Source: a virus
Lineage: Duplodnaviria > Caudoviricetes
Length of the DNA: 25,530 nucleotides
Strand: one strand, 5' to 3'
IMG/VR virus record: IMGVR_UViG_3300042361_000388
Coordinates: 1 to 25,530 of that record
Each line of letters starts with the position of its first letter. The first letter of the stretch is position 1. Shown here one piece after another: positions 320 through 20,933 of the stretch. The translations under genes and the position numbers were made by a program. Under the pieces are notes generated by a model that was not told the DNA's origin, ran no database searches, and saw only the letters and a program-made list of their open reading frames with translations.

Positions 320-1920
320 CAGTAACTTCCCCCACCCCAGCCTTTCATGGTATCTTTTGTCAAATATATGGGGTTCATGGTGATTAGATACCTCAGGCAG
401 TCGATTGGGTCCTTTGTAGCACCCTTTTCTCCATCCAATCCAGTCCATTCCTTGATGCAATATATTAAGTTTTGGCATGATTCTGATATATATAGTTTTG
501 GCTTGTTCAAGGGGGACATTTCTATATTCTGGTCGAAGGAAAAGCCGTCATTTATCATTGCGACGCCCTGTTCTATCTTTACGCCAGCCGCTGGAACGAA
601 ATGCATCGGATTTTCGCCGTCATCAAGCATGTCAATGAGCGTCACACCGCCGTCTTCTGTCACAGCCTTGGTTCCGCCAGCCCTAGGGTCGATATATCTT
701 TCAGATATTTCCTCACCGTCTTCTAGGTCAAGGATGAGATTCTTGTAATCGGCTAGACTCCGTCCAGCGTTAGAACGCTGGGCGGTTCCGATTTTTCCGT
801 CGGGGTCCGCCGACGGCAGGGCCCATTCGCCTTCTGACGTGTCGGGCCACTCCCTGTAGACGTAGATATTACCGTCGGCGTCAACCCGACCCCATATCAT
901 GAACCAATTTCTGGCTCCAGCGGGGTCTGCGACCATATAATTCGTGCCTTCTTTTGGAATATGCTCGTCCTTGATGATGTTCACATGGTCTATGAATCTT
1001 GGGAATTGATTTCCTGTGATGTTGTCGGCCCATCCGTACGCACGAATCTTGACCTCGTACGATTTCTTGCCAGCGAGCGTCTTCTTCAATTGCTCGAAAG
1101 GATTATACGGGTTTAGTTCACTATGGAACCATATCACGGCGGCTGGCCTGACATGGGACTTAGCAACGTAGGGCATGACGCCCTTAGGACAGCCGTTGAC
1201 GTTGACAGTATCTGGGAGCAGGGGGCTTTCTCTATGCTTGATTATCTTAGCACCAGAGACATACTCTTTGACTACTGGACTATAACCCGTGACTGGAGTG
1301 AAAGTCACCAGCAACTTGCCGCTTCTGGTCACGATGCGGTAGCGTAGCGTCTCAATCCAGTCTAAAGGAACCAACTCGTCGCACCAAATCAAATCGACTT
1401 CGCCGCCTTCGATGACGTCACGCTTCTGGGCGTAGTTCATGAAGAAGCATTGAGATTTGTTCGGTAGGATGAAAGTGTTGTCGCTGAAACCGTTCTTCTG
1501 CGTGTACTCGACGTTCTGGACCTTGTTCTTCTTGAGGTTCTTGTATTCCGACGGGAGGTATTTGTACACGACGTTCTGTTGCATCTGGATGCTCGACTGG
1601 TTCGTCGTGTGCAGACACCAGACACGGGCGTCCTTCAGGTTTATGAGCGTCTGGGCTACCCGCTTCGCCGCCCACTCCGTTTTCGACGCACGGTTCCCTC
1701 CGAGCACAAGCAACTCGTTGTTTTCTTTGAGCAACAGGTCCGCTTCTTTCCAATGTGGTAGGTCGAACCCGTGCCTGTACGGGTCGAGTTTTTCTGCGAG
1801 TATCTTGTCCTCACGGATTGATAATAGTTCTGCGACCTTTTCCGCACCGTGCTTCTCCGTGAGGGCTCTTATCTCCTCGACGGTAGGCACTACCAGAACT
1901 GGGTGCGGGGTGAGATTCAT
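319..1920 (-). CDS. terL: Terminase large subunit
   Basis: 533 aa. Walker A GGNRASKT, Walker B LIWCDE, coupling motif TFTP, RNase H-like nuclease acidic residues (VADP, YIDP, KDPIDCLRY). Confidence 0.93.
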   Translation of the reverse strand: MNLTPHPVLVVPTVEEIRALTEKHGAEKVAELLSIREDKILAEKLDPYRHGFDLPHWKEADLLLKENNELLVLGGNRASKTEWAAKRVAQTLINLKDARVWCLHTTNQSSIQMQQNVVYKYLPSEYKNLKKNKVQNVEYTQKNGFSDNTFILPNKSQCFFMNYAQKRDVIEGGEVDLIWCDELVPLDWIETLRYRIVTRSGKLLVTFTPVTGYSPVVKEYVSGAKIIKHRESPLLPDTVNVNGCPKGVMPYVAKSHVRPAAVIWFHSELNPYNPFEQLKKTLAGKKSYEVKIRAYGWADNITGNQFPRFIDHVNIIKDEHIPKEGTNYMVADPAGARNWFMIWGRVDADGNIYVYREWPDTSEGEWALPSADPDGKIGTAQRSNAGRSLADYKNLILDLEDGEEISERYIDPRAGGTKAVTEDGGVTLIDMLDDGENPMHFVPAAGVKIEQGVAMINDGFSFDQNIEMSPLNKPKLYISESCQNLIYCIKEWTGLDGEKGATKDPIDCLRYLITMNPIYLTKDTMKGWGGGSY

Positions 1921-3188: not shown

Positions 3189-3264
3189 TGGCAGGGATAG
3201 GGGGATTCGAACCCCCGACTTAGCCCTTATAAAGAGCCCACTCTAACCGCTGAGTTATACCCCC
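3189..3264 (-). tRNA. trnI: tRNA-Ile (anticodon TAT) with encoded CCA
   Basis: GGGGGTATAACTCAGCGGTTAGAGTGGGCTC-TTTATAA-GGGCTAAGTCGGGGGTTCGAATCCCCCTATCCCTGCCA forms a full cloverleaf with GTTCGAATC T-loop. Confidence 0.9.
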
Positions 3265-3272
3265 ATGTAAAG

Positions 3273-3343
3273 AACCCCGACTAGGATTCGAACCTAGACA
3301 AAGAGAACCAAAATCTCTAGTGCTACCGTTACACCATCAGGGT
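3273..3343 (-). tRNA. trnQ: tRNA-Gln (TTG)
   Basis: ACCCTGA-TGGTGTAACGGTAGCAC, anticodon arm AGAGA-TTTTGGT-TCTCT, T arm CTAGG-TTCGAAT-CCTAG. No encoded CCA. Confidence 0.9.
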
Positions 3344-3346
3344 AAA

Positions 3347-3418
3347 TCGACCCGCTAGGAATCGAACCTAGATAACCCGCTTAGAAGGCGGGTGTTCTAT
3401 CCGTTGAACTACGGGTCG
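3347..3418 (-). tRNA. trnR: tRNA-Arg (TCT)
   Basis: CGACCCG-TAGTTCAACGGATAGAAC, anticodon arm CCCGC-CTTCTAA-GCGGG, T arm CTAGG-TTCGATT-CCTAG. Confidence 0.92.
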
Positions 3419-3425
3419 GAAAGAG

Positions 3426-3497
3426 AGCCCCGTGTAGGGATTGAACCTACGACCTACTGTTTACAAAACAGTCGCACTACCGCTGTGCTAACGGGGC
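3426..3497 (-). tRNA. trnT: tRNA-Thr (TGT)
   Basis: GCCCCGT-TAGCACAGCGGTAGTGC, anticodon arm ACTGT-TTTGTAA-ACAGT, T arm GTAGG-TTCAATC-CCTAC. Confidence 0.92.
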
Positions 3498-3689
3498 ATA
3501 TTCAAAGAACACCCCCTATCCTATACTCTATTTGACGAAGTCAATATGAATCATCGGCAATCGGCTCTTTGTTAGAATATCTCATTTTGCTGCTTGACAA
3601 CATACAGGCCGTCCCCCCTAATAACCCCCCTGCCTCGCTCCGCTCGGCCTCCTCACATCCCACCTCCTTTTTGGGATAAAAAGTTTCCC

Positions 3690-4100
3690 TGTCTGGACCC
3701 GTACTTCCTCAGGGGGACGGACAAAATCCCGACCCCCTCCCCCCCCCTAGGGCTGGGGGTGCGGAATGGGGGGTGCAGGGCTGGGGCTGGGGACGGGGCT
3801 GGCTGGGGGCTGGGGCAGGGCGTCGGGCCGACGTCGTCGGCAGGGCCTCAGGCTGGGGCAAGGCGGGGCTTTTAGGCGGTGAAGGTGGTAGGGGTCGGGA
3901 CGGGTTCCTGAGGGGTTCCTGACGGGCTCCTGAGAGCGTCCTGAGGGCGTCGGGCCTGAGGGGGCTGGGAGGGCTGGGAAGGGGTAGGGCTCCACGGTTG
4001 ACGGGCGGGAAGCGGGTGAGGGCCAGGTGCTAGGCGGGAGGCAGTCAGGTGGAACTATCCGGGCGTCTCAGGCCGTCGGGCAGGGTAAGGACTGGGCCAA
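3690..4100. other. Non-coding G-skewed region, candidate genome terminus/packaging region
   Basis: A C-run (GACCCCCTCCCCCCCC, 3731-3748) is followed by many GGG/GGGG tracts on the + strand. Only low-complexity Pro/Gly ORFs are present. Lies between the packaging genes and the early cassettes. Confidence 0.55.
3906..3960 (+). repeat. TCCTGA direct repeats with 11-bp period
   Basis: TCCTGA at 3906, 3917, 3928 and 3939, plus CCTGAG at 3955. Confidence 0.75.
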
Positions 4101-4103
4101 ACG

Positions 4104-4127
4104 AAAAGGGCCCCCTTGCGGGGGCCC
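4104..4127 (-). terminator. Intrinsic terminator of cassette A
   Basis: GGGCCCCC-GCAA-GGGGGCCC-TTTT on the minus strand, just after the stop at 4134. Confidence 0.88.
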
Positions 4128-4133
4128 TGAGGC

Positions 4134-4610
4134 TTAGGAAGCACCGTCGCCGTTGAACTGTCCCTTCCTCCTGTCGGGCTCCAGTCCACGGGCTCGAAGT
4201 TCGGCGAGATAGGAGTCGGCGAGACGTCGGTTGCGGTCACCTTTGTTATGCCCACCAGCCTGCATCGCTGTGACGTTTGCGTTCGCATACCACGTTTGCA
4301 GTTCGTCGTCGCTGGTCTTCGCATTGCGTCCGATTTCGTACATCGCCTGAGCGACGTCGTCTTCGATTGCGTCGAGTGCCCTGTAAGCCTTCCGCAGTTC
4401 GTCCCGCTGGGAGCGAAGGAACGGGAGGCGACGGTCAGCAACGGGCATCGCTTCGATTTCGTCGTGCAGGGCGATAACTTCGTCGCCGACGTGCGTCTTC
4501 CGAAGCCTGACGGCTTCGAGCGTCTTTTTGAGGTTGCCGAGAATCTCTTCGGCGGAGTTCGAGCGGGGGAGACGCTCAGGAGAATTGTCCCCGTGGTTGA
4601 TAGGTTCCAC
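4134..4610 (-). CDS. Cassette A cargo, hypothetical helical protein (158 aa, starts MEPINHGD)
   Basis: GTG start, open 158 codons, flanked by promoter and terminator. Confidence 0.85.
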   Translation of the reverse strand: MEPINHGDNSPERLPRSNSAEEILGNLKKTLEAVRLRKTHVGDEVIALHDEIEAMPVADRRLPFLRSQRDELRKAYRALDAIEDDVAQAMYEIGRNAKTSDDELQTWYANANVTAMQAGGHNKGDRNRRLADSYLAELRARGLEPDRRKGQFNGDGAS

Positions 4611-4616
4611 GGCTCG

Positions 4617-4645
4617 AATGTGAGACGTCGGGCGTCCTGATGCAA
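4617..4645 (-). promoter_or_regulatory. Sigma70-like promoter of cassette A
   Basis: TTGCAT-17-CACATT-6-GTG. Confidence 0.7.
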
Positions 4646-4648
4646 CGC

Positions 4649-4677
4649 AAAAGAAAAGGGCCCCATCGCTGGGGCCC
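4649..4677 (-). terminator. Intrinsic terminator of cassette B
   Basis: GGGCCCCA-GCGA-TGGGGCCC-TTTTCTTTT. Confidence 0.88.
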
Positions 4678-4682
4678 TGAGT

Positions 4683-5129
4683 TCATTCGTAATGTGGTAC
4701 GGTATGACTGGATTCTGAGAACGGGACGTCGTCGTCGAGTACGATGTGCGTCGCACGTCGTCGGGAGGCGGACCAGAAAGCGGGAGTTTTGATACCGTCG
4801 ATTTCGTCGCCTTCGAAGATTGCCCCGTGTTCATTCCTGAAGCGTTCGAGCATCGCCTTGCGGTCCTCCTGACTGAACGGTTCCCTGACGCAAGCGATGG
4901 GGGTGAGCCAGTCATACCACCATCCTCCTTCCTCAGGTCCGCCGAAGCACCGTTCGATTTCATACAGCGAAGACCAGCGGGGAGGCGACGGGCCCCAGTT
5001 GCGATTCTTGTGCAGGAACGTCGAGAGGTTGCACAAGCCTCGGTTGATGTTGATGCCGACAGCGTCGTCGGCGGACTGATTCGAGAGGGGGTTCGAATCG
5101 GGATTGCCCTCAGGTGTGTTAGGTTCCAC
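4683..5129 (-). CDS. Cassette B cargo, hypothetical protein with GGPEEGGWWY motif (148 aa)
   Basis: GTG start MEPNTPEG. The motif YEIERCFGGPEEGGWWYD is recalled from uncharacterised phage early proteins. Confidence 0.85.
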   Translation of the reverse strand: MEPNTPEGNPDSNPLSNQSADDAVGININRGLCNLSTFLHKNRNWGPSPPRWSSLYEIERCFGGPEEGGWWYDWLTPIACVREPFSQEDRKAMLERFRNEHGAIFEGDEIDGIKTPAFWSASRRRATHIVLDDDVPFSESSHTVPHYE

Positions 5130-5135
5130 GTCCTG

Positions 5136-5164
5136 ACAAAAGCCTTACACGATGCCCGACGCAA
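5136..5164 (-). promoter_or_regulatory. Promoter of cassette B
   Basis: TTGCGT-17-TTTTGT-6-GTG. The -10 is weak but spacing matches the other units. Confidence 0.55.
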
Positions 5165-5165
5165 C

Positions 5166-5194
5166 AAACAAAAAGGGCCCCATCGCTGGGGCCC
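5166..5194 (-). terminator. Intrinsic terminator of cassette C
   Basis: GGGCCCCA-GCGA-TGGGGCCC-TTTTTGTTT. Confidence 0.88.
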
Positions 5195-5201
5195 CGTTGC
5201 T

Positions 5202-5621
5202 TTATTCGTCGCTGTCTTCGTCGTCGTCGTCGCTGTCCTCTTCGTCGTCTTCGACGTAGTCGGCGACGCTCAGGCCGATGCAGAAGGAGAGGAGTTCGTC
5301 GTATCCTTCCATTTCCTTCCTGAGGTTCTCGCTGAGCGTTCGAGCGTTCGGCACGCTCTCAGGAAGTTCTCCCGCCATTGCGAACTGGCTGAGGATTCGG
5401 AGGCGGTCCGCAACGTTGCGGTCCGTATGCTTCCACGCCCTGCTGAGCGTTCCGAGGACGGCGAAGATGTTGCCGTCGGTGTTCCAGTTGACGCTGGGGA
5501 ACTTGCCCTTGTACTCGCCGAGGATGTAACGGCGGAGCGTTTCGGTTGCCGACAAGACCGTCGGCTGGTTGAGAGCGGGGGAGACGCTCTTCTGGATTTC
5601 CCCGTGGTTGTTAGGTTCCAC
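5202..5621 (-). CDS. Cassette C cargo, hypothetical protein with acidic tail (139 aa)
   Basis: GTG start MEPNNHGE, DGNIFAVLG..YDELL motif, C-terminus EDDEEDSDDDDEDSDE. Confidence 0.85.
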   Translation of the reverse strand: MEPNNHGEIQKSVSPALNQPTVLSATETLRRYILGEYKGKFPSVNWNTDGNIFAVLGTLSRAWKHTDRNVADRLRILSQFAMAGELPESVPNARTLSENLRKEMEGYDELLSFCIGLSVADYVEDDEEDSDDDDEDSDE

Positions 5622-5627
5622 GGGAGA

Positions 5628-5657
5628 ACACTAGGCGACAAAAGGCCGGGCGTGCAA
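5628..5657 (-). promoter_or_regulatory. Promoter of cassette C
   Basis: TTGCAC-18-TAGTGT-6-GTG. Confidence 0.7.
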
Positions 5658-5675
5658 GCGACAAAAACGGGAAAC

Positions 5676-5699
5676 AAAAAAGGCCCCCTTGCGGGGGCC
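5676..5699 (-). terminator. Intrinsic terminator of cassette D
   Basis: GGCCCCC-GCAA-GGGGGCC-TTTTTT. Confidence 0.88.
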
Positions 5700-5704
5700 A
5701 GTTG

Positions 5705-6112
5705 TTAGTTCAGCCTGACGTCGTCGGGCGTCCCTTTCTTCTTCTTCCGTTGCACGACTCGGAACTGGAGCGTTGCGAGTTCCCGCTCGAACTTGTCGGA
5801 CAAGAACCGCTCGATTCGGTCGGCAATGTTCTTCGTATCGGCGGGGCTGATGTCAGTCGGGTCGGCGAACTCTTCGAACGTGTCTTCGAGAATCAGAAAC
5901 AAGTGCGTGCCGTCGGGCTCGATTCGAACGCCGTCCTCATCCTCAACGTACCAGCCGATGTTCCGAATCTGGAGTAGAATCGTGTCTCGCTGGTGGAGTT
6001 CGTTTTTAGGGAACTCGCACAAGCCGACGAAGTTAGTGCCGAAGATATCGTCGGCGGATTGGGAGCGGGGGAGACGCTCACCGTTGTTTTCCCCGTGGTT
6101 GATAGGTTCCAC
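5705..6112 (-). CDS. Cassette D cargo, hypothetical protein (135 aa, starts MEPINHGE)
   Basis: Start reassigned from 6127 to the conserved GTG at 6112, which is in frame. Confidence 0.85.
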   Translation of the reverse strand: MEPINHGENNGERLPRSQSADDIFGTNFVGLCEFPKNELHQRDTILLQIRNIGWYVEDEDGVRIEPDGTHLFLILEDTFEEFADPTDISPADTKNIADRIERFLSDKFERELATLQFRVVQRKKKKGTPDDVRLN

Positions 6113-6118
6113 GCTCAC

Positions 6119-6147
6119 AATCTGCACGGCCTACAGGACAAACACAA
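6119..6147 (-). promoter_or_regulatory. Promoter of cassette D
   Basis: TTGTGT-17-CAGATT-6-GTG. Confidence 0.65.
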
Positions 6148-6152
6148 GAAAC

Positions 6153-6177
6153 AAAAAGGGGCCCCTTGCGGGGCCCC
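6153..6177 (-). terminator. Intrinsic terminator of cassette E
   Basis: GGGGCCCC-GCAA-GGGGCCCC-TTTTT. Confidence 0.88.
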
Positions 6178-6183
6178 GTCGTG

Positions 6184-6723
6184 TCATCCGTAGATGACGT
6201 CTCCGCACGTCGCAACCTGAAGGAAGCAGTCATAATCCACACCGTCGAAGTCGAACGTACTCAGGATTTCGTCGGCATCGTCGTGCAGTCCACGGGCGTG
6301 CAGTTCGACGACGCATAAGAGTTTGACGAATCGGGCACGGGCGTGGGCCGTCATTTCTCGCTTCCCGTAAGCGTATCGCTTCCAAACGGCGACGGCTGAC
6401 TTGGCGGTGATTCGCTTGTACGGTGAATCTGCGTCGTCGTCTTCGTCGTTTGCATTCATCCGCACCGTCAGGCTCCAGTCTTCCCGTGCGGGTTTCCCGC
6501 TGGGAGTGTCGAGCCCGCCTTCGGCAAAAGCGGCGTCGAGAAAGCCGTCGTGACTTCGCTTGTGCTTTAACTGAAACCAATTCGGGTTGAGTCCAGTTTC
6601 TAGGGCCCCGTTCAAAATCCCAGCGACGAAGAGGGAGGTTTTGAAACTCGCCGACAAGACCGTCGGCTGGTTGACGCTGGGGGAGACAGCGTCGTTTTTT
6701 TCCCCGTGGTTGATAGGTTCCAC
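6184..6723 (-). CDS. Cassette E cargo, hypothetical protein (179 aa, starts MEPINHGE)
   Basis: Start reassigned to the conserved GTG at 6723. C-terminal DGVDYDCFLQVATCGDVIYG resembles a DxxxQxAxxGevvYG end motif of uncharacterised phage proteins. Confidence 0.85.
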   Translation of the reverse strand: MEPINHGEKNDAVSPSVNQPTVLSASFKTSLFVAGILNGALETGLNPNWFQLKHKRSHDGFLDAAFAEGGLDTPSGKPAREDWSLTVRMNANDEDDDADSPYKRITAKSAVAVWKRYAYGKREMTAHARARFVKLLCVVELHARGLHDDADEILSTFDFDGVDYDCFLQVATCGDVIYG

Positions 6724-6729
6724 GCTCAC

Positions 6730-6758
6730 AATGTGGAACACGACGACGTCGAACGCAA
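6730..6758 (-). promoter_or_regulatory. Promoter of cassette E
   Basis: TTGCGT-17-CACATT-6-GTG. Confidence 0.7.
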
Positions 6759-6763
6759 TAAAC

Positions 6764-6788
6764 AAAAAGAGCCCCCTTGCGGGGGCCC
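6764..6788 (-). terminator. Intrinsic terminator of cassette F
   Basis: GGGCCCCC-GCAA-GGGGGCTC-TTTTT. Confidence 0.88.
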
Positions 6789-6810
6789 GTTGTGGAACCT
6801 TTCGGTTGGA

Positions 6811-7131
6811 TTATTTCGGCGTCTTAAGTCGGAAACCCTTCAGGGCCTTCGTCGCAAGGGTGAACAGAACCTTGCGGTCCGATTCGCTGACGTTGTGCCC
6901 ACTCGCTTGTTCGGCGAACTTTCGGGCCTCCTCTAGATTTTCCATAATCTTGTTATAGGAGTGGAGGATTCCGTTCTTTCTCGCACGGGTGCGAGAGAGG
7001 GCCGTCAGAAACCGCTTTTCGGCGGGGCTGGCAGGATTGGCAGAGAACGGCACGTGTTCCGAAGAACCGCTTCGGGCGGTGACGCTGGGGGAGACAGCGT
7101 CGGAGGATTCCCCGTGGTGGTTAGTGTCCAC
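6811..7131 (-). CDS. Cassette F cargo, hypothetical basic protein (106 aa, starts MDTNHHGE)
   Basis: Start reassigned to GTG at 7131. The longer ORF-track call would run through a terminator and a promoter. Confidence 0.8.
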   Translation of the reverse strand: MDTNHHGESSDAVSPSVTARSGSSEHVPFSANPASPAEKRFLTALSRTRARKNGILHSYNKIMENLEEARKFAEQASGHNVSESDRKVLFTLATKALKGFRLKTPK

Positions 7132-7137
7132 GGGTTG

Positions 7138-7166
7138 AACGTGTAACACATTAGGGAGGCCGTCAA
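7138..7166 (-). promoter_or_regulatory. Promoter of cassette F
   Basis: TTGACG-17-CACGTT-6-GTG. Confidence 0.75.
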
Positions 7167-7176
7167 CACGTAAGGC

Positions 7177-7207
7177 AAAAAAAGAAGGGAGCCTTTCGGC
7201 CCCCTTC
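7177..7207 (-). terminator. Intrinsic terminator after the 407-aa gene
   Basis: GAAGGGGGCC-GAAA-GGCTCCCTTC-TTTTTTT. Confidence 0.88.
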
Positions 7208-7214
7208 GCTTTGC

Positions 7215-8438
7215 TTACCAGCCCCGCTCTTCCGCCAGTCTCAACAGGTCCCTTTGGTTGATACGGTGACAACCTATCAGGACGAACCCGTCGGCAACCT
7301 CTCGCATTTGGAACGGCCCGACGGCGACGGGAGGCTCGAACTTGTGGGCGTCCTTCCTGAGTTCTTCGGCGTGTCGGCGAAACACCCTTGAGGCAATCCC
7401 TTCGGGAACTCTCGCACCCCGTGACGTCGCAACCTCTTCGGCCTCTACCCTCAAAACCTCTCCCGTGTCGGCGAGAGCATCGGCCCCTTTAACCTCTTCG
7501 ACGATAAACCTGACGAATGATGTGAAGGAGTCGAACGCCGTGTGCTTCTTTCGGTCCTGAAGTTCTTCCCAGAAACTGCGGAACATCAGCCCCGCCTTCT
7601 TCGAGCCGTCAGAGAACACGGAGAACGGTGACGTCAGGTGCATCGGCATAACTCCCTGCCTCCACGCTTCCCGTCGGAACCTGAGTTCCTCTAGGCAAAC
7701 GTCCACGGCGTCCCGATATGATTCGCCGAACTGGTTGAGTTTACTGCGGACCGCTTGCACGCTATCATCTAATCGCTTCTGCCTAAGTTCTCCCTTACGT
7801 GCGTTGTAATCTTCGACACGTGCGACATATTCCTGAGCGGTCTTTCTGAACTTCTTCCCGACGTTGCGAAGTGCCTTGCTCACTCGCTTCTCTTCGCCGT
7901 CTCGCTGGTTGAGAACTTTCTGAAACCATTGTGCGGTTTTCAGGAGTTTATAGTTCCGCCAGATATCAATAACGCTTGCGGACCTGATTCGCTTGTTCCC
8001 GATGTGTTCGAGAAACTTCCCGATTTGCTTCGCAACGTCTTCGACGACGGAGTGGGAGAAGGAGAAGAAGGGGCCGTCAATCGGGAACGTTACGGCATAC
8101 CCTTGTTTAATCCTGTACTGGATGAACTCATCCACGGTCTTCCAGTCGAGTGTCGCTTCCGTCGGGCAAGGGATTTCAAGGGGAATCGAGCGGTAGAGGG
8201 CCCCCTTGTGCCGAGTCGAACTTACGGAGTAGGTTCGGGAGTTAATCAGGAAGACGGCGTTCCTGTTGACGTCGTCGAAAACCTTACGCTTTGCCAGCGT
8301 CGTCGAGTACGTGACAAGGCGGGTTTCGTCGCCGTCGGGAATGGAACTCACATTCCCGCTTACCATTTCTTTCTGCACCCCGTTCGCATAATTGTGAATC
8401 AGGGAAGTAATATTCTTTTGATGTTTTTTGATTTTCAT
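7215..8438 (-). CDS. Hypothetical protein, 407 aa
   Basis: Long ORF with ATG preceded by an AC-rich leader (GCACAACCAC), with its own promoter and terminator. Confidence 0.85.
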   Translation of the reverse strand: MKIKKHQKNITSLIHNYANGVQKEMVSGNVSSIPDGDETRLVTYSTTLAKRKVFDDVNRNAVFLINSRTYSVSSTRHKGALYRSIPLEIPCPTEATLDWKTVDEFIQYRIKQGYAVTFPIDGPFFSFSHSVVEDVAKQIGKFLEHIGNKRIRSASVIDIWRNYKLLKTAQWFQKVLNQRDGEEKRVSKALRNVGKKFRKTAQEYVARVEDYNARKGELRQKRLDDSVQAVRSKLNQFGESYRDAVDVCLEELRFRREAWRQGVMPMHLTSPFSVFSDGSKKAGLMFRSFWEELQDRKKHTAFDSFTSFVRFIVEEVKGADALADTGEVLRVEAEEVATSRGARVPEGIASRVFRRHAEELRKDAHKFEPPVAVGPFQMREVADGFVLIGCHRINQRDLLRLAEERGW

Positions 8439-17677: not shown

Positions 17678-18302
17678 AGTACAGTATGCAGAGCGTCGTG
17701 GTTGCTATGGCTCCGCCGACTATCCACATAAACCAAGTGGAATCGAATATCCAAGACGAGGCCATAGCCAGCATGCCTCCAGCCATAGTTATACCAGCCG
17801 ACTTCTTGAACGGAGTAAAGGCCATTGCAAGGAGGCCAGCCACGAAGATTCCAAGGCCAGCGGTGCTGTACTGCCATAGTATCTTCTGCTTGAACTCAGC
17901 GTCTGCTTTGGCATAAGCCTCTGATATCTCGAAGTCCTTCTGCATGACTAGGTCGTACAGGGCGTTCGTTTCTTCCTCGACCTTCTCCGCCTTCTTCTTG
18001 TCCTTCTCTATGGCCTTGGTGTCGTTCTGACTTATTATACGGGTGAACTCCTGCACCTTCTTGACGTCAGGCTTTGCGACACCAGACAAACGGGTCACTT
18101 GGGCTTCGACAACTTCTCTGACAGTTCCTTTATCGAGGACAGGAACGACAGCAGTAAGGGCAGAAGCAGAGTCAGATACGACTGCTTCGACCTTCTCGAT
18201 GTACTTGTCTTTCTCTTTGTTCTCAATTTTAGGCGGGGTTATTGGTTCTGGTTGCTTGGTGGCACAACCCGTAAGAAGGATTGCTACAATAATGAATCTC
18301 AT
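17634..18302 (-). CDS. Lipoprotein with coiled coil and C-terminal TM helices (spanin-like)
   Basis: Signal peptide II MRFIIVAILLTG-C (start 18302), helical middle, 2-3 hydrophobic segments at the C-terminus. Confidence 0.7.
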   Translation of the reverse strand: MRFIIVAILLTGCATKQPEPITPPKIENKEKDKYIEKVEAVVSDSASALTAVVPVLDKGTVREVVEAQVTRLSGVAKPDVKKVQEFTRIISQNDTKAIEKDKKKAEKVEEETNALYDLVMQKDFEISEAYAKADAEFKQKILWQYSTAGLGIFVAGLLAMAFTPFKKSAGITMAGGMLAMASSWIFDSTWFMWIVGGAIATTTLCILYSILRPRPKEPSQEI

Positions 18303-19468
18303 TTTATGTGTTCTTTTATGTCGTCGTTGATGGACGGGACCCAACTGTTCGCACGTTCCATAATTCTTCTTGACGCTTCATCTCCAGCGTCACCCATTCT
18401 GGCAGGACCACGTCCGCCTCGTCCTTCGTTGCTACCGAATCCAGCCATGCCCATTGTAATTGAGTTAGCCACAGAGCCAAGTACACCCGTACCCAACATC
18501 CCTGTTGTTTCCAGTAGGCTGGCGTCTCTTGGACCAGTATAGTTTTCTGGATACTTGGACCTTCTTATCCTGTCCTCATGGGCTGTTATAGACGGTGTCT
18601 CAAACAAGAAAGAAGCAATGCCTCCTATTTTTCCAGCGATTCGACCTGAGCGTCCTAGCGTATCAACCGTTTTTACACCCTGTCCTGTCCTTCCATGCAA
18701 TTGAATAGTTTGAGTATCAGGGTCTATTACTCCAGCAGTACGAGAATATCTTTCTATTGTATCTGAAGTAGGAAAAAGTTCGCTTGCTGTATTCGTAGAT
18801 AAATAGGAAGCGGCTTTGGCCTCGTTACCACCCTGAAGAATTAACCTAGGAAAATTGTACTGCTTCTTCCAAGACTTAATCCATTCCTGTCCGTGGCTAT
18901 GATTGGTAGTAGCACCTCCAAAAGGAGGGTGTTGAGCCAATGGAATCATCGCCGCTTCTTCGCTTCCAGCAACGACAGTAAGTGGAGAGGGAACTGTGAA
19001 CACACCTTGATTCTTTAATCCGCCAGCAAAGTAATATTTTAAATCCCTAGGAGCAGTAGCGGCATTAACATCGGTGTAAAACCTTTTTGAGTACCAAGCC
19101 CGATTTTCTATCTGGTTTATTGCCTGTTGTATTTCGAGTCGTGTCGCCTCTGTGGTTGCGTTTGCAAGCGATACTCTAAGTGTCTTTAATTTTGCCTCTG
19201 CGTTTGCGTTTATTGCAGACTGAGGAAGCCTAGCGTCTCTATCAGGACCCTGAAAGTCAGCCCTTATCCCTAAGTATCTTTCATTGGTTGGGTTAAATCT
19301 TCTATTGAACTCGCTTCCCCGTGTATAAGCAACGGCATCATCTACGTTTGTAAACGTCCTAGTTACGTTTTCGGCAGGGATAAGTTGAGCCTTGCCCGAC
19401 AAGGCATCAAGATAAGGAGCATTGAATAGCCAAGCACCATGATAAAGTGGAAAGTTTTGTTCAGCCAT
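18299..19468 (-). CDS. Hypothetical protein, 389 aa, C-terminal ~100 aa shared with the next gene
   Basis: ATG 19468 lies immediately after the upstream stop (MAEQNFPLYHG...). Confidence 0.82.
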   Translation of the reverse strand: MAEQNFPLYHGAWLFNAPYLDALSGKAQLIPAENVTRTFTNVDDAVAYTRGSEFNRRFNPTNERYLGIRADFQGPDRDARLPQSAINANAEAKLKTLRVSLANATTEATRLEIQQAINQIENRAWYSKRFYTDVNAATAPRDLKYYFAGGLKNQGVFTVPSPLTVVAGSEEAAMIPLAQHPPFGGATTNHSHGQEWIKSWKKQYNFPRLILQGGNEAKAASYLSTNTASELFPTSDTIERYSRTAGVIDPDTQTIQLHGRTGQGVKTVDTLGRSGRIAGKIGGIASFLFETPSITAHEDRIRRSKYPENYTGPRDASLLETTGMLGTGVLGSVANSITMGMAGFGSNEGRGGRGPARMGDAGDEASRRIMERANSWVPSINDDIKEHIK

Positions 19469-19469
19469 G

Positions 19470-20933
19470 TTACTTGGAGTGTTCTTTGATATCGTCGTTG
19501 ATGGATGGGACCCAACTGTTCGCCCTCTCCATAGTCCTTCTGGTAATCTCGTTTCCAGTATCTTCCATGCGTGCAGGGCCACGTCCTCCACGGCTTTCAT
19601 TACTGCCGACGCCAGTCATACCCATTGTAAGTGAGTTAGCAACAGAGCCAACCACGCCCTTGCCTACCATCTGTGCCGTCTCAAGTAGGCTGGCATCTCT
19701 TGGACCAGTATAATCAGCAGGGTACTTAGACCTTCTTATTCTATCCTCACGTGCCGTTATAGACGGTGTCTCAAGCAAGAACGTCGCCGCACCTCCAGCC
19801 TTTGTAGCACCAGCGATAGCGGTCTGAACTTCAGGTTGAACGTAAAGGCTTGTTGCGTTCCACTTGGCGTTTCTAAGATGTTGACCAATAGTTCTTTCTG
19901 TAAAAGGAGTTATGCCGTCGTAAAGTGTCCTCATATTAAGAGGACCAATAGTGGTTGTTACTGCTTTCATTTCCTTTGGGATAATAGTATTTCCAGAATA
20001 CCTTGGTCTATACATGCTGTTACCAACAGGAATGAAATCTCTATCAAGTATTTCTTGTGGAACGTTTCCAACAAGCCTATAAACCTCTGAGCCATTTGCT
20101 ACTGGGGCTGTGCTTGTTTGCATAACTCTAAGCCCCTGCCTGTTCCAAGGATTTACCCTATCTATGAAAGAAGGATTTTCACTTGGATTAAGAGCAAGAT
20201 ATCCGTTGTTAAATGGAGTTGCCTTTAGACTAACGCCTTGAGATGCCTTCTCCCATTCTTTAAGTGCTTCTGGCCTGATTATTTTCCAAGGGTCGCCTTG
20301 TCTTGTTTTGTCGGTCAACAAGTCAGAGCCTTGAGATATAAAGCCTCTACTTGATATAGAGTCATACAAAGGATTAGCACCACTTGCCGCTCTTTCCATA
20401 AATTGCGGCGTAGCCTGAATGTAAATGTTTTTTGTTAATGGAGTTGCCCTAGATGTATACATTCCGAAACTACCCATGTTATCTACTTGGTTTCCAAGTT
20501 TGTCAAAAACAGCAGTAGACCGATATTCTTCAGCAGGAAATCCAGCGTTAAAATAAGCAGAGCCTCCAAATCCAGCCGTGCCACGAACTTGTCCAGTTCT
20601 CAGAAGGTCATTTACAGGATTTGTAAGATATCCCTCTTTCGTAACTGATGCTCCTTCTTGTGATAAAACCCTCCAAGTGTCGTACTCGTCATAAGAAAGG
20701 GTTCCTTTAAGGTTAGGATTATTACGTCTCCACTTTAACCAATTGTTTTCTGAAAAAGGTTTATTATGTACGTTTGGAATTAGCGGGGCTGGTTCAACAT
20801 CCATAAGCCTGTAGAAGTCACTACCTCTGCTAAAGTTGTTTGATGAAACAGGGTGTGTATACAGGTCATAGCCGATGCCATCCTTTATAAATCCATCATT
20901 AAATCTTGTTACTGGAAGAATAGGGTCAGCCAT
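19470..20933 (-). CDS. Hypothetical protein, 487 aa, C-terminal ~100 aa shared with the previous gene
   Basis: Long ORF with near-identical tail ETPSITAxEDRIRRSKYP...SWVPSINDDIKEHxK. Confidence 0.85.
   Translation of the reverse strand: MADPILPVTRFNDGFIKDGIGYDLYTHPVSSNNFSRGSDFYRLMDVEPAPLIPNVHNKPFSENNWLKWRRNNPNLKGTLSYDEYDTWRVLSQEGASVTKEGYLTNPVNDLLRTGQVRGTAGFGGSAYFNAGFPAEEYRSTAVFDKLGNQVDNMGSFGMYTSRATPLTKNIYIQATPQFMERAASGANPLYDSISSRGFISQGSDLLTDKTRQGDPWKIIRPEALKEWEKASQGVSLKATPFNNGYLALNPSENPSFIDRVNPWNRQGLRVMQTSTAPVANGSEVYRLVGNVPQEILDRDFIPVGNSMYRPRYSGNTIIPKEMKAVTTTIGPLNMRTLYDGITPFTERTIGQHLRNAKWNATSLYVQPEVQTAIAGATKAGGAATFLLETPSITAREDRIRRSKYPADYTGPRDASLLETAQMVGKGVVGSVANSLTMGMTGVGSNESRGGRGPARMEDTGNEITRRTMERANSWVPSINDDIKEHSK

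Follow-up and report, generated by a model that had tools for sequence, protein, structure and literature searches.

A predicted pseudoknot at a fixed distance behind putative leaderless GTG starts in the early genes of a tailed phage

Our subject is an element of 74-76 nucleotides (nt) that forms the opening of each of six early genes in a tailed phage (Duplodnaviria; Caudoviricetes), known from the IMG/VR virus record IMGVR_UViG_3300042361_000388. The window is the whole 25.5-kb stretch analysed (positions 1 to 25,530), which carries a terminase-like gene and genes for an endolysin, an exonuclease VIII, a replication initiator, a DnaC-like loader and an Erf recombinase. On its minus strand, at 4107-7207, lie six early-gene cassettes, A to F, each made up of a G/C-rich terminator-like hairpin with a U-tract, a promoter-like stretch, a GTG-started open reading frame (ORF) of 106-179 amino acids (aa) and the next terminator. 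That the element is real, with a structure backed by comparison among relatives, is strongly supported; its core, as judged from the aligned copies, is a predicted pseudoknot, and a leaderless GUG start of each cassette mRNA is a well-supported prediction. The explanation that we favour, with a probability of roughly 0.45, is that the pseudoknot (nt 19-51, usually followed by a further hairpin, H3) would aid, in cis, the initiation of ribosomes on a leaderless GUG mRNA.

The copies in the window, numbered from the G of the GTG as nt 1, are as follows.

4535..4610, minus strand: element A, GTG at 4610, then 15 A/C-rich nt, pseudoknot strand at nt 19-23, hairpin H2 (loop end at nt 45) and hairpin H3; 74.6 bits
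5054..5129, minus strand: element B, GTG at 5129, GAGGG/CCCTC pseudoknot, 8-nt loop
5547..5621, minus strand: element C, GTG at 5621, loop end at nt 44
6037..6112, minus strand: element D, GTG at 6112
6649..6723, minus strand: element E, GTG at 6723, pseudoknot 6701-6705 with 6680-6684, H2 at 6673-6693, H3 at 6650-6667
7058..7131, minus strand: element F, GTG at 7131

In the pseudoknot, nt 19-23 (purine-rich in all copies) pair with the last five nt of the 7-8 nt loop of H2, the order of the core being 5 base pairs (bp), an A/C-rich linker of 7-10 nt, a stem of 5-7 bp, 2-3 nt, and then the paired part of the loop running directly into the 3' strand of the stem. H3 has 6 bp and mostly a 6-nt loop opening with G; at least five contiguous pairs are present in 17 of 21 copies, the other four having a mismatch beside the loop. 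The conserved unpaired bases are A25, C40 and A53, together with a G and a U in the H3 loop. An initial annotation, made from the letters of the window, had described three hairpins (H1, H2 and H3), an H2 loop starting at nt 38-39 and a simultaneous change of both pseudoknot partners in B, and had noted that the same H2 sequence is read in one frame in A and D and in another in C: all of this is present as described. Its view that conservation is structural and not at the level of the peptide also holds, in that the stems covary and the peptide is free to vary.

The evidence for pairing comes from relatives gathered by DNA pattern, terminase and cassette proteins. A covariance model built from 21 copies, with the pseudoknot pairs left out, was run on 100 sources (1,033,662 bases); 39 hits scored 68-94 bits, most of them matching by construction, and the next hit (24 bits, in locus L099) is a chance match. 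Behind the 39 hits are 23 distinct sequences, in 22 of which all five pseudoknot pairs are of Watson-Crick type, the remaining one (cassette D of L101) having four of the five. The paired strand occurs in six versions (GGGGA, GAGGG, GGGAG, GGAAG, GGGGG and GCGGG), each of which pairs best with its own loop, as the proposal of a pseudoknot in the initial annotation would lead one to expect. When the strand is slid by 1-4 nt, pairing is found in 19-66 of 105 cells, compared with 105 of 105 in the true register (21 copies, a set partly chosen by a descriptor that demands pairing). An alignment of 21 copies made with MAFFT, in which three of the five pseudoknot pairs can be counted, has 94.0% of 336 cells paired, with two-sided changes in 13 of 16 pairs; slid partners pair in 31-57% of cells, and none of 500 alignment shuffles was as good, in a control that ignores relatedness. 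H2 and H3 covary strongly.

Further comparisons point the same way. Between the window and L002, which is 99.8% identical to it, six of the eight differences in 4240 nt fall within the stems of element A, and all of them keep or improve pairing. Three G-U wobbles would become A-C mismatches if read on the plus strand, which favours the mRNA strand as the one that folds. A divergent and independent copy in locus L142, surfaced by the covariance model (31 bits) in a binned phage contig, keeps the position of the pseudoknot with a new H2 stem and without H3. For 11 relatives available as protein sequences only, the codons of the opening peptide allow pairing, with a 7-bp H2 in ten and one of 6 bp in all 11 (compared with none of 100-200 control windows each), and six codons precede the pseudoknot strand in every case; these proteins were picked by their likeness to the element peptide, and are therefore supporting, not independent, evidence.

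The third hairpin of the original description, H1, fares less well. Its 5' C falls, by prediction, at position -1 and would be untranscribed, and its 3' G is base 19, used by the pseudoknot, so that H1 comes down to 4 bp; its register shifts between copies, and it is no better than composition-matched shuffles, 20% of which reach its summed energy (16 distinct 5' ends). A two-sided change in H1 does occur in L142, and is reached by 2.3% of shuffles. It is because H1 is weak and H3 is absent from L142 that we take the pseudoknot to be the core, the three-hairpin description standing for H2 and H3 in their strong covariation. A switch that senses a ligand, or a ribozyme that cleaves itself, in the 5' end of every transcript would suit a compact pseudoknot, an H1 that could hide the GUG and the two-sided change in that one copy, but few unpaired bases are conserved, H1 does not rise above shuffles, and no conserved alternative fold was found across the copies, which also tells against the switch offered in the initial annotation. 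At gathering thresholds, Rfam 15 found nothing in the window but four tRNAs, leaving the element unmatched; at expectation values (E) of up to 10, terminator or chance matches appeared (the best at 24.5 bits against a gathering threshold of 50), with similar results for L093 and L100. No Rfam model of a riboswitch or ribozyme matches even at this relaxed level, as the initial annotation had supposed, and we regard a switch or ribozyme as highly improbable.

Where do the cassette mRNAs begin? When upstream sequences are aligned at the GTG, there is a T at -7 in 23 of 23, an A at -11 in 20 of 22, TTG at -35/-36 in 22 of 22 and a pyrimidine at -1 in 23 of 23, these promoter calls themselves resting on alignment to the GTG. 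Six nt separate the -10 box from the GTG, and there is no Shine-Dalgarno (SD) sequence. Standard sigma-70 geometry was used to place +1, and with the promoter alignment it therefore predicts that +1 is the G of the GTG. The GTG frame is free of stops over nt 1-75 in 25 of 25 copies, the other two frames having stops in 5 and 22 of the 25; no in-frame ATG occurs before codon 30 in any of the 25, and no alternative GTG or TTG is conserved. The ORFs end 5-22 nt ahead of a terminator in 21 of 23 cases (the other two being cut by contig ends), and codon-position bias favours the GTG frame in all six ORFs of the window. The cassette proteins match no Pfam family, and their PHROG matches are weak or of unknown function only. 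The features of the array, from A to the gene beyond F, are listed here.

4107..4128, minus strand: intrinsic-terminator-like hairpin after A
4134..4610, minus strand: ORF A, 158 aa from GTG, no assigned function
4617..4645, minus strand: predicted sigma-70-type promoter of A, TTG at -35, 17 nt, xAxxxT at -12 to -7
4657..4678, minus strand: terminator-like hairpin in the gap between B and A
4683..5129, minus strand: ORF B, 148 aa, residues 51-101 matching phrog_30656 and phrog_7302 (unknown function)
5136..5164, minus strand: predicted promoter of B, lacking the A at -11
5174..5195, minus strand: terminator-like hairpin in the gap between C and B
5202..5621, minus strand: ORF C, 139 aa, no assigned function
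5628..5657, minus strand: predicted promoter of C, 18-nt spacer
5682..5699, minus strand: terminator-like hairpin in the gap between D and C
5705..6112, minus strand: ORF D, 135 aa from GTG, no in-frame ATG
6119..6147, minus strand: predicted promoter of D
6158..6177, minus strand: terminator-like hairpin in the gap between E and D
6184..6723, minus strand: ORF E, 179 aa, weak match to phrog_2355
6730..6758, minus strand: predicted promoter of E
6769..6788, minus strand: terminator-like hairpin in the gap between F and E
6811..7131, minus strand: ORF F, 106 aa from GTG
7138..7166, minus strand: predicted promoter of F
7184..7207, minus strand: terminator-like hairpin upstream of F
7215..8438, minus strand: gene for an uncharacterised early protein of 407 aa, started by ATG behind a predicted A/C-rich leader of 17 nt and without the element; a candidate partner only

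The distance from the GTG to the pseudoknot strand is 18 nt in all 23 full copies and in L142, two degenerate copies having 17 nt. When the window and 89 loci (about 1.03 Mb, both strands) were scanned with a descriptor that specifies the structure and leaves the start codon free, 18 distinct hits appeared, and in 14 of these, six of which are the window's own, a GTG lies exactly 18 nt upstream of the paired strand. The end of the H2 loop is at nt 44 or nt 45, according to the copy; H3 shifts accordingly, and only beyond H3 do the copies return to frame. Both classes are represented among the copies of gene E. The RNA geometry is therefore rigid and the peptide free, and no fixed start after H2 or H3 can be in frame for both classes. 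A start 5-10 nt after nt 19-23, led by that strand as an SD sequence, was considered and rejected.

These frame relationships bear on a quite different explanation, in which nt 1-18 would be an ordinary A/C-rich leader and initiation would dispense with initiator tRNA, the H2 loop and nt 19-23 mimicking an anticodon on its codon. With its five pairs on a 7-nt loop, all toward the 3' side, the element recalls the anticodon mimic in pseudoknot I of the dicistrovirus intergenic region (IGR) internal ribosome entry site (IRES), and nt 19, which is in frame, takes the place that the ATG has in the 407-aa gene, the last nt of that gene's predicted leader matching nt 12-18 in copies A, C, D and E. 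In pseudoknot I of the IGR IRES, however, an anticodon-like hairpin lies 5' of the codon-like strand and the ORF follows the strand in a fixed frame, whereas the strand order is reversed in the phage element: with the codon-like strand 5' of the hairpin, the linker of 7-10 nt would have to hold an A-site codon and return. The frame, moreover, is not fixed with respect to the end of H2 or H3 but differs by length class, the loops have 7 or 8 nt and the stems 5-7 bp, and the GTG is intact where nt 4 changes. The anticodon-arm mimic raised in the initial annotation is not supported by these comparisons, and a start without initiator tRNA seems barely plausible.

Natural controls are provided by early genes without the element. 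Homologues of E in more distant relatives start with ATG behind an A/C-rich, SD-less leader and are missing the first 20-25 or so codons, and homologues of B are likewise ATG-started and without the element. A pseudoknot of at least 4 bp is present at the equivalent place in none of 22 ATG starts of early genes, cassette 4 of L142 being represented in this test by the first of its two ATGs only. L142 (G033:C40, 1-2921) is a mixed array, in which all five predicted transcription starts are G: three cassettes with ATG starts and predicted leaders of 3-7 nt are without the element, the complete GTG cassette has the pseudoknot, and the fifth cassette, also GTG-started, is cut by the contig end. 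That all the promoters of L142 are predicted to begin with G suggests why the start of an element-bearing cassette is never ATG. By this comparison, the pseudoknot module goes with predicted zero-leader GTG starts. Two of the ATG genes of L142 have an identical predicted 3-nt leader; the contig itself is binned under a genome labelled Acidimicrobiaceae, probably by mis-binning. In the window, ATG is the start of all 18 other genes examined, and an SD-like 4-mer is found upstream of 3 of 21 genes examined; the host may initiate largely without SD pairing. In element-free relatives (L047 2900-8200; L052 5600-8200; L075 1000-2160; L149), A/C-rich, SD-less leaders precede the ATG throughout.

How might a pseudoknot so placed assist a leaderless start? 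We suggest that early promoters start transcripts with G, and that a zero-length leader would force GUG, not AUG, as the first codon; that the A/C-rich nt 4-18 would stay nearly unstructured and enter the mRNA channel; and that the pseudoknot, lying about 6 nt beyond the 12 or so nt covered by an initiating 70S ribosome, would offer a backstop or a docking surface (to the uS3/uS4/uS5 entrance, or to bS1). Once docked, it would hold the GUG at the P site until fMet-tRNA binds, and elongating ribosomes would then unwind it, the first 20-25 codons becoming a passenger N-terminal tail. Leaderless translation usually starts far less well from GUG than from AUG, and CA repeats just downstream of the start enhance it (PMC9031893). 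The P site, A site and entry channel span 12 nt (PMC10491246) and the ribosome senses structure at +11/+12 (PMC12170187), which would place the start of the pseudoknot about 6 nt outside the initiating ribosome. In alphaviruses, initiation is promoted by a downstream structure whose effect depends on how far it lies from the start codon (PMC4872096), and bS1 has a high affinity for pseudoknots (PMC10931766). Among the roles listed in the initial annotation, one on leaderless mRNA is supported by the geometry of GTG and promoter and by the frame, while the stability element and the protein operator survive as rivals only.

Several points weigh against an aid to initiation. With nt 19 some 6 nt past +11/+12, a plain backstop would have slack (PMC12170187); in some species, translation of a leaderless mRNA falls when stable structure surrounds its start, and some actinobacteria use GUG efficiently as a leaderless start (PMC9031893). 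H1 could pair with the GUG itself (predicted at -2 to -4 kcal/mol in 13 of 16 distinct 5' ends), and a scan with a strict sigma-70 consensus found no minus-strand promoter at the array. A loose test for the pseudoknot was passed by one ATG gene (12083) out of 18, one copy (L142) does without H3, and in the two degenerate copies from last cassettes, which were included by hand, only 4 bp are left and the register is off by one. Nor is the association of pseudoknot and GTG a proof of dependence, since the two may have arisen once as a block.

Of the other explanations, the least unlikely makes the element an operator common to these early genes, which a protein of the phage or the host would bind so as to shut off or license their translation together, for example by trapping the ribosome, as uS4 and uS15 do on their pseudoknots. 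A rigid geometry and some conserved unpaired bases are what the site of a specific binder might be expected to have, pseudoknots that work by entrapment have been described near start codons (PMC10931766), and a candidate might be sought in the 407-aa protein, whose gene comes first wherever an element-bearing locus is long enough to include the head of the array (the window, L014, L093, L101/102/105 and L142). Against this, early cassettes of the same type in L142 are without the element, stem sequences vary freely, and the fold family of the 407-aa protein is found also in unrelated phages, its structural look-alikes being uncharacterised proteins of phiCbK, crAss-like and Achromobacter phages. 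The protein has a DUF8033-like N-terminal part, and its model (pLDDT 85) had no match in the PDB at E up to 0.001, the matches being to helical bundles only, with Z up to 8.2. On balance we think a shared operator unlikely.

Distinctly unlikely, in our estimation, is an mRNA stabiliser that blocks the 5'-end-dependent scanning of an RNase E-like nuclease and lies in the ORF only because there is no leader, 18 nt serving to keep the structure clear of the initiating ribosome. Coaxial base pairing shields distal sites from RNase E (PMC9943677), and the placement just past the ribosome footprint fits; but this would leave unexplained why the spacer is never 21 or 24 nt and why H3 keeps a fixed distance, and it gives no reason why ATG cassettes of the same array, with predicted leaders of 3-7 nt, should be without the element. 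The same placement might alternatively mark a programmed early-elongation pause or a recoding signal, given that structure is sensed at +11/+12, so that nt 19 would be reached at about codon 3 (PMC12170187), and that the purine-rich nt 19-23 could later act as an internal SD sequence near a C-run. There is, however, no slippery heptamer in nt 1-18, the other frames miss the conserved domains and do not end at terminators, and SD-like 4-mers are as rare upstream of the window's genes as noted above; we consider a pause or recoding signal very unlikely.

The distribution of the element is narrow. A whole-record search of 34 records found it in only four, always in the early array (two further hits, in G004 and G015, score 13 bits), and it therefore appears to be confined to one clade in a larger phage family. 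Among 24 metagenome loci, seven (L093, L100, L101, L102, L105, L111 and L112) have true elements and 17 do not; four further candidate loci were chance matches. A specific DNA pattern had no matches in 185,579 GTDB genomes, and was too narrow, since the covariance model surfaced a divergent copy in a binned phage contig; a loose pattern gave 17 matches against 16 in controls, and 6 against 4, in two genome bins, which is chance level. In L014 (6076-6327) and L012 (569-925), the last cassette has a degenerate element (a 4-bp shifted pseudoknot with different H2 and H3), in a gene unrelated to the window's A. An extra ORF in L100 (about 1040-1345, minus strand) lies over the stop of a cassette gene and looks, by eye, like a LuxR-type helix-turn-helix protein, and there is a similar-looking gene in L125 near 2370-2625. 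The host cannot be assigned, because relatives of the terminase are found only in short contigs of two bins whose labels disagree (Acidimicrobiaceae and Fluviibacter), and the best annotated phage is 33% identical.

Cassettes are gained and lost, and element A differs patch-wise between near-identical genomes, which might suggest that the element acts as DNA, as a single-stranded recombination site (a role raised in the initial annotation) or a homology patch for shuffling cassettes. Cassette B is missing from L101 and L105, however, and there the join is inside the terminator and not in the element, so that cassettes can be shuffled without its help; each of the six differences in the patch preserves RNA pairing or improves it, and the position of the element is tied to promoter and reading frame. 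Integron attC sites are long imperfect palindromes with two core sites at the cassette boundary, and work with an integrase; the element, by contrast, consists of three short hairpins inside the start of an ORF, and no integrase was found among the 19 window proteins scanned, in what is a partial genome record. A DNA role is to our minds the least plausible of all the explanations considered.

No description of the element was found in the literature searched, a search that took in neither most subscription journals nor supplementary motif tables. It is a member of no known family, and as a kind belongs with downstream RNA structures that govern start-codon use. In the alphavirus downstream loop (DLP) of 26S mRNA, too, a coding-region structure lies at a set distance after the start, behind an A/C-tolerant spacer, and it stalls the small subunit on the start codon, promoting initiation (PMC4872096). 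The DLP, as described there, involves eukaryotic 40S scanning and ES6S trapping, and is a simple hairpin at 25-40 nt after the AUG of a led mRNA, whereas the phage element, whose role in initiation is a proposal, has a predicted pseudoknot and a hairpin spaced 18 nt from a GUG that would itself open the mRNA. The cassettes themselves recall the PeSLs of the T4-type phages RB49 and phi1, in which a repeated sigma-70 promoter and G/C-rich terminator hairpin accompany small early genes subject to gain and loss; PeSLs end in an SD sequence and start codon, and the available portion of that account describes no in-gene structure (PMC2839356). In the present array, on the other hand, there is no SD sequence and no predicted leader, a conserved structure lies inside the ORF, and, in further distinction from the T4-type phages, related complete genomes are mostly of 41-46 kb.

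Among bacterial structures, the entrapment pseudoknots of uS4 (alpha operon) and uS15 (rpsO) are also near a start codon, but in those led mRNAs the ribosome-binding site lies inside the pseudoknot or 3' of it, and the protein bound is the product of the gene itself (PMC10931766); the phage pseudoknot lies entirely 3' of the start codon and recurs on genes unrelated to one another. The bacterial selenocysteine insertion sequence (SECIS) is, similarly, a coding-region structure just past the 11 or so nt in the mRNA tunnel that can hold a factor, but it is a hairpin after a UGA, binds SelB and acts in elongation (PMC4513850), whereas the phage element has no UGA, no Rfam match and no known factor. 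Leaderless mRNAs of the lambda cI type share the start codon at the 5' end and A/C-rich first codons (PMC9031893; PMC10491246), and differ in having an AUG start and no conserved downstream structure. The arrays of UG27 non-coding RNAs, which are intergenic units of 135-167 nt beside a reverse transcriptase, are unlike the phage element (10.64898/2026.09.22.753630).

Some other features of these genomes may be mentioned. Cassettes B and A are spanned by an open frame of 370 codons (4055-5167, minus strand), displaced by one base from the true reading frame and most likely a by-product of codon bias. Four tRNA genes, including one for tRNA-Ile with a TAT anticodon, lie at 3189-3497, and L014 has a longer cluster in the same place. 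Between the early array and the tRNA cluster is a non-coding, strongly strand-asymmetric stretch, G-rich or C-rich with short repeated motifs, seen in all the relatives read (window 3600-4100; L012 1000-1340; L014 6380-6860; L075 2200-2700) and possibly a genome end, packaging site or origin. Elsewhere in the window, two tandem paralogous ORFs (18299-19600 and 19470-20933) have in common a 300-nt repeat at their 3' ends, with 79% identity.

What would the element mean for these phages? A pseudoknot is kept at a fixed distance behind a predicted leaderless GUG, at a cost of 20-25 junk codons, on many unrelated genes. A broader proposal, which we hold a little more tentatively than the favoured explanation itself, is that it is a portable, gene-independent RNA module that would allow efficient starts on a 5'-terminal GUG by docking of the pseudoknot at the mRNA entrance, and that this phage clade has grafted it onto at least eight unrelated early genes. 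A review holds that the selection and regulation of individual leaderless mRNAs are not understood, and that structure near the start is usually inhibitory (PMC9031893). The element-free versions of the same genes are natural controls, and the question could be tested with a 76-nt reporter. Should the element prove to enhance initiation, leaderless translation in bacteria would have a new kind of element, a counterpart to the downstream loop of the alphaviruses, small and portable enough to serve as a part in leaderless expression; as an operator or a stabiliser, it would still represent a new family of phage cis-regulatory RNAs inside coding sequence, outside the reach of intergenic RNA screens.

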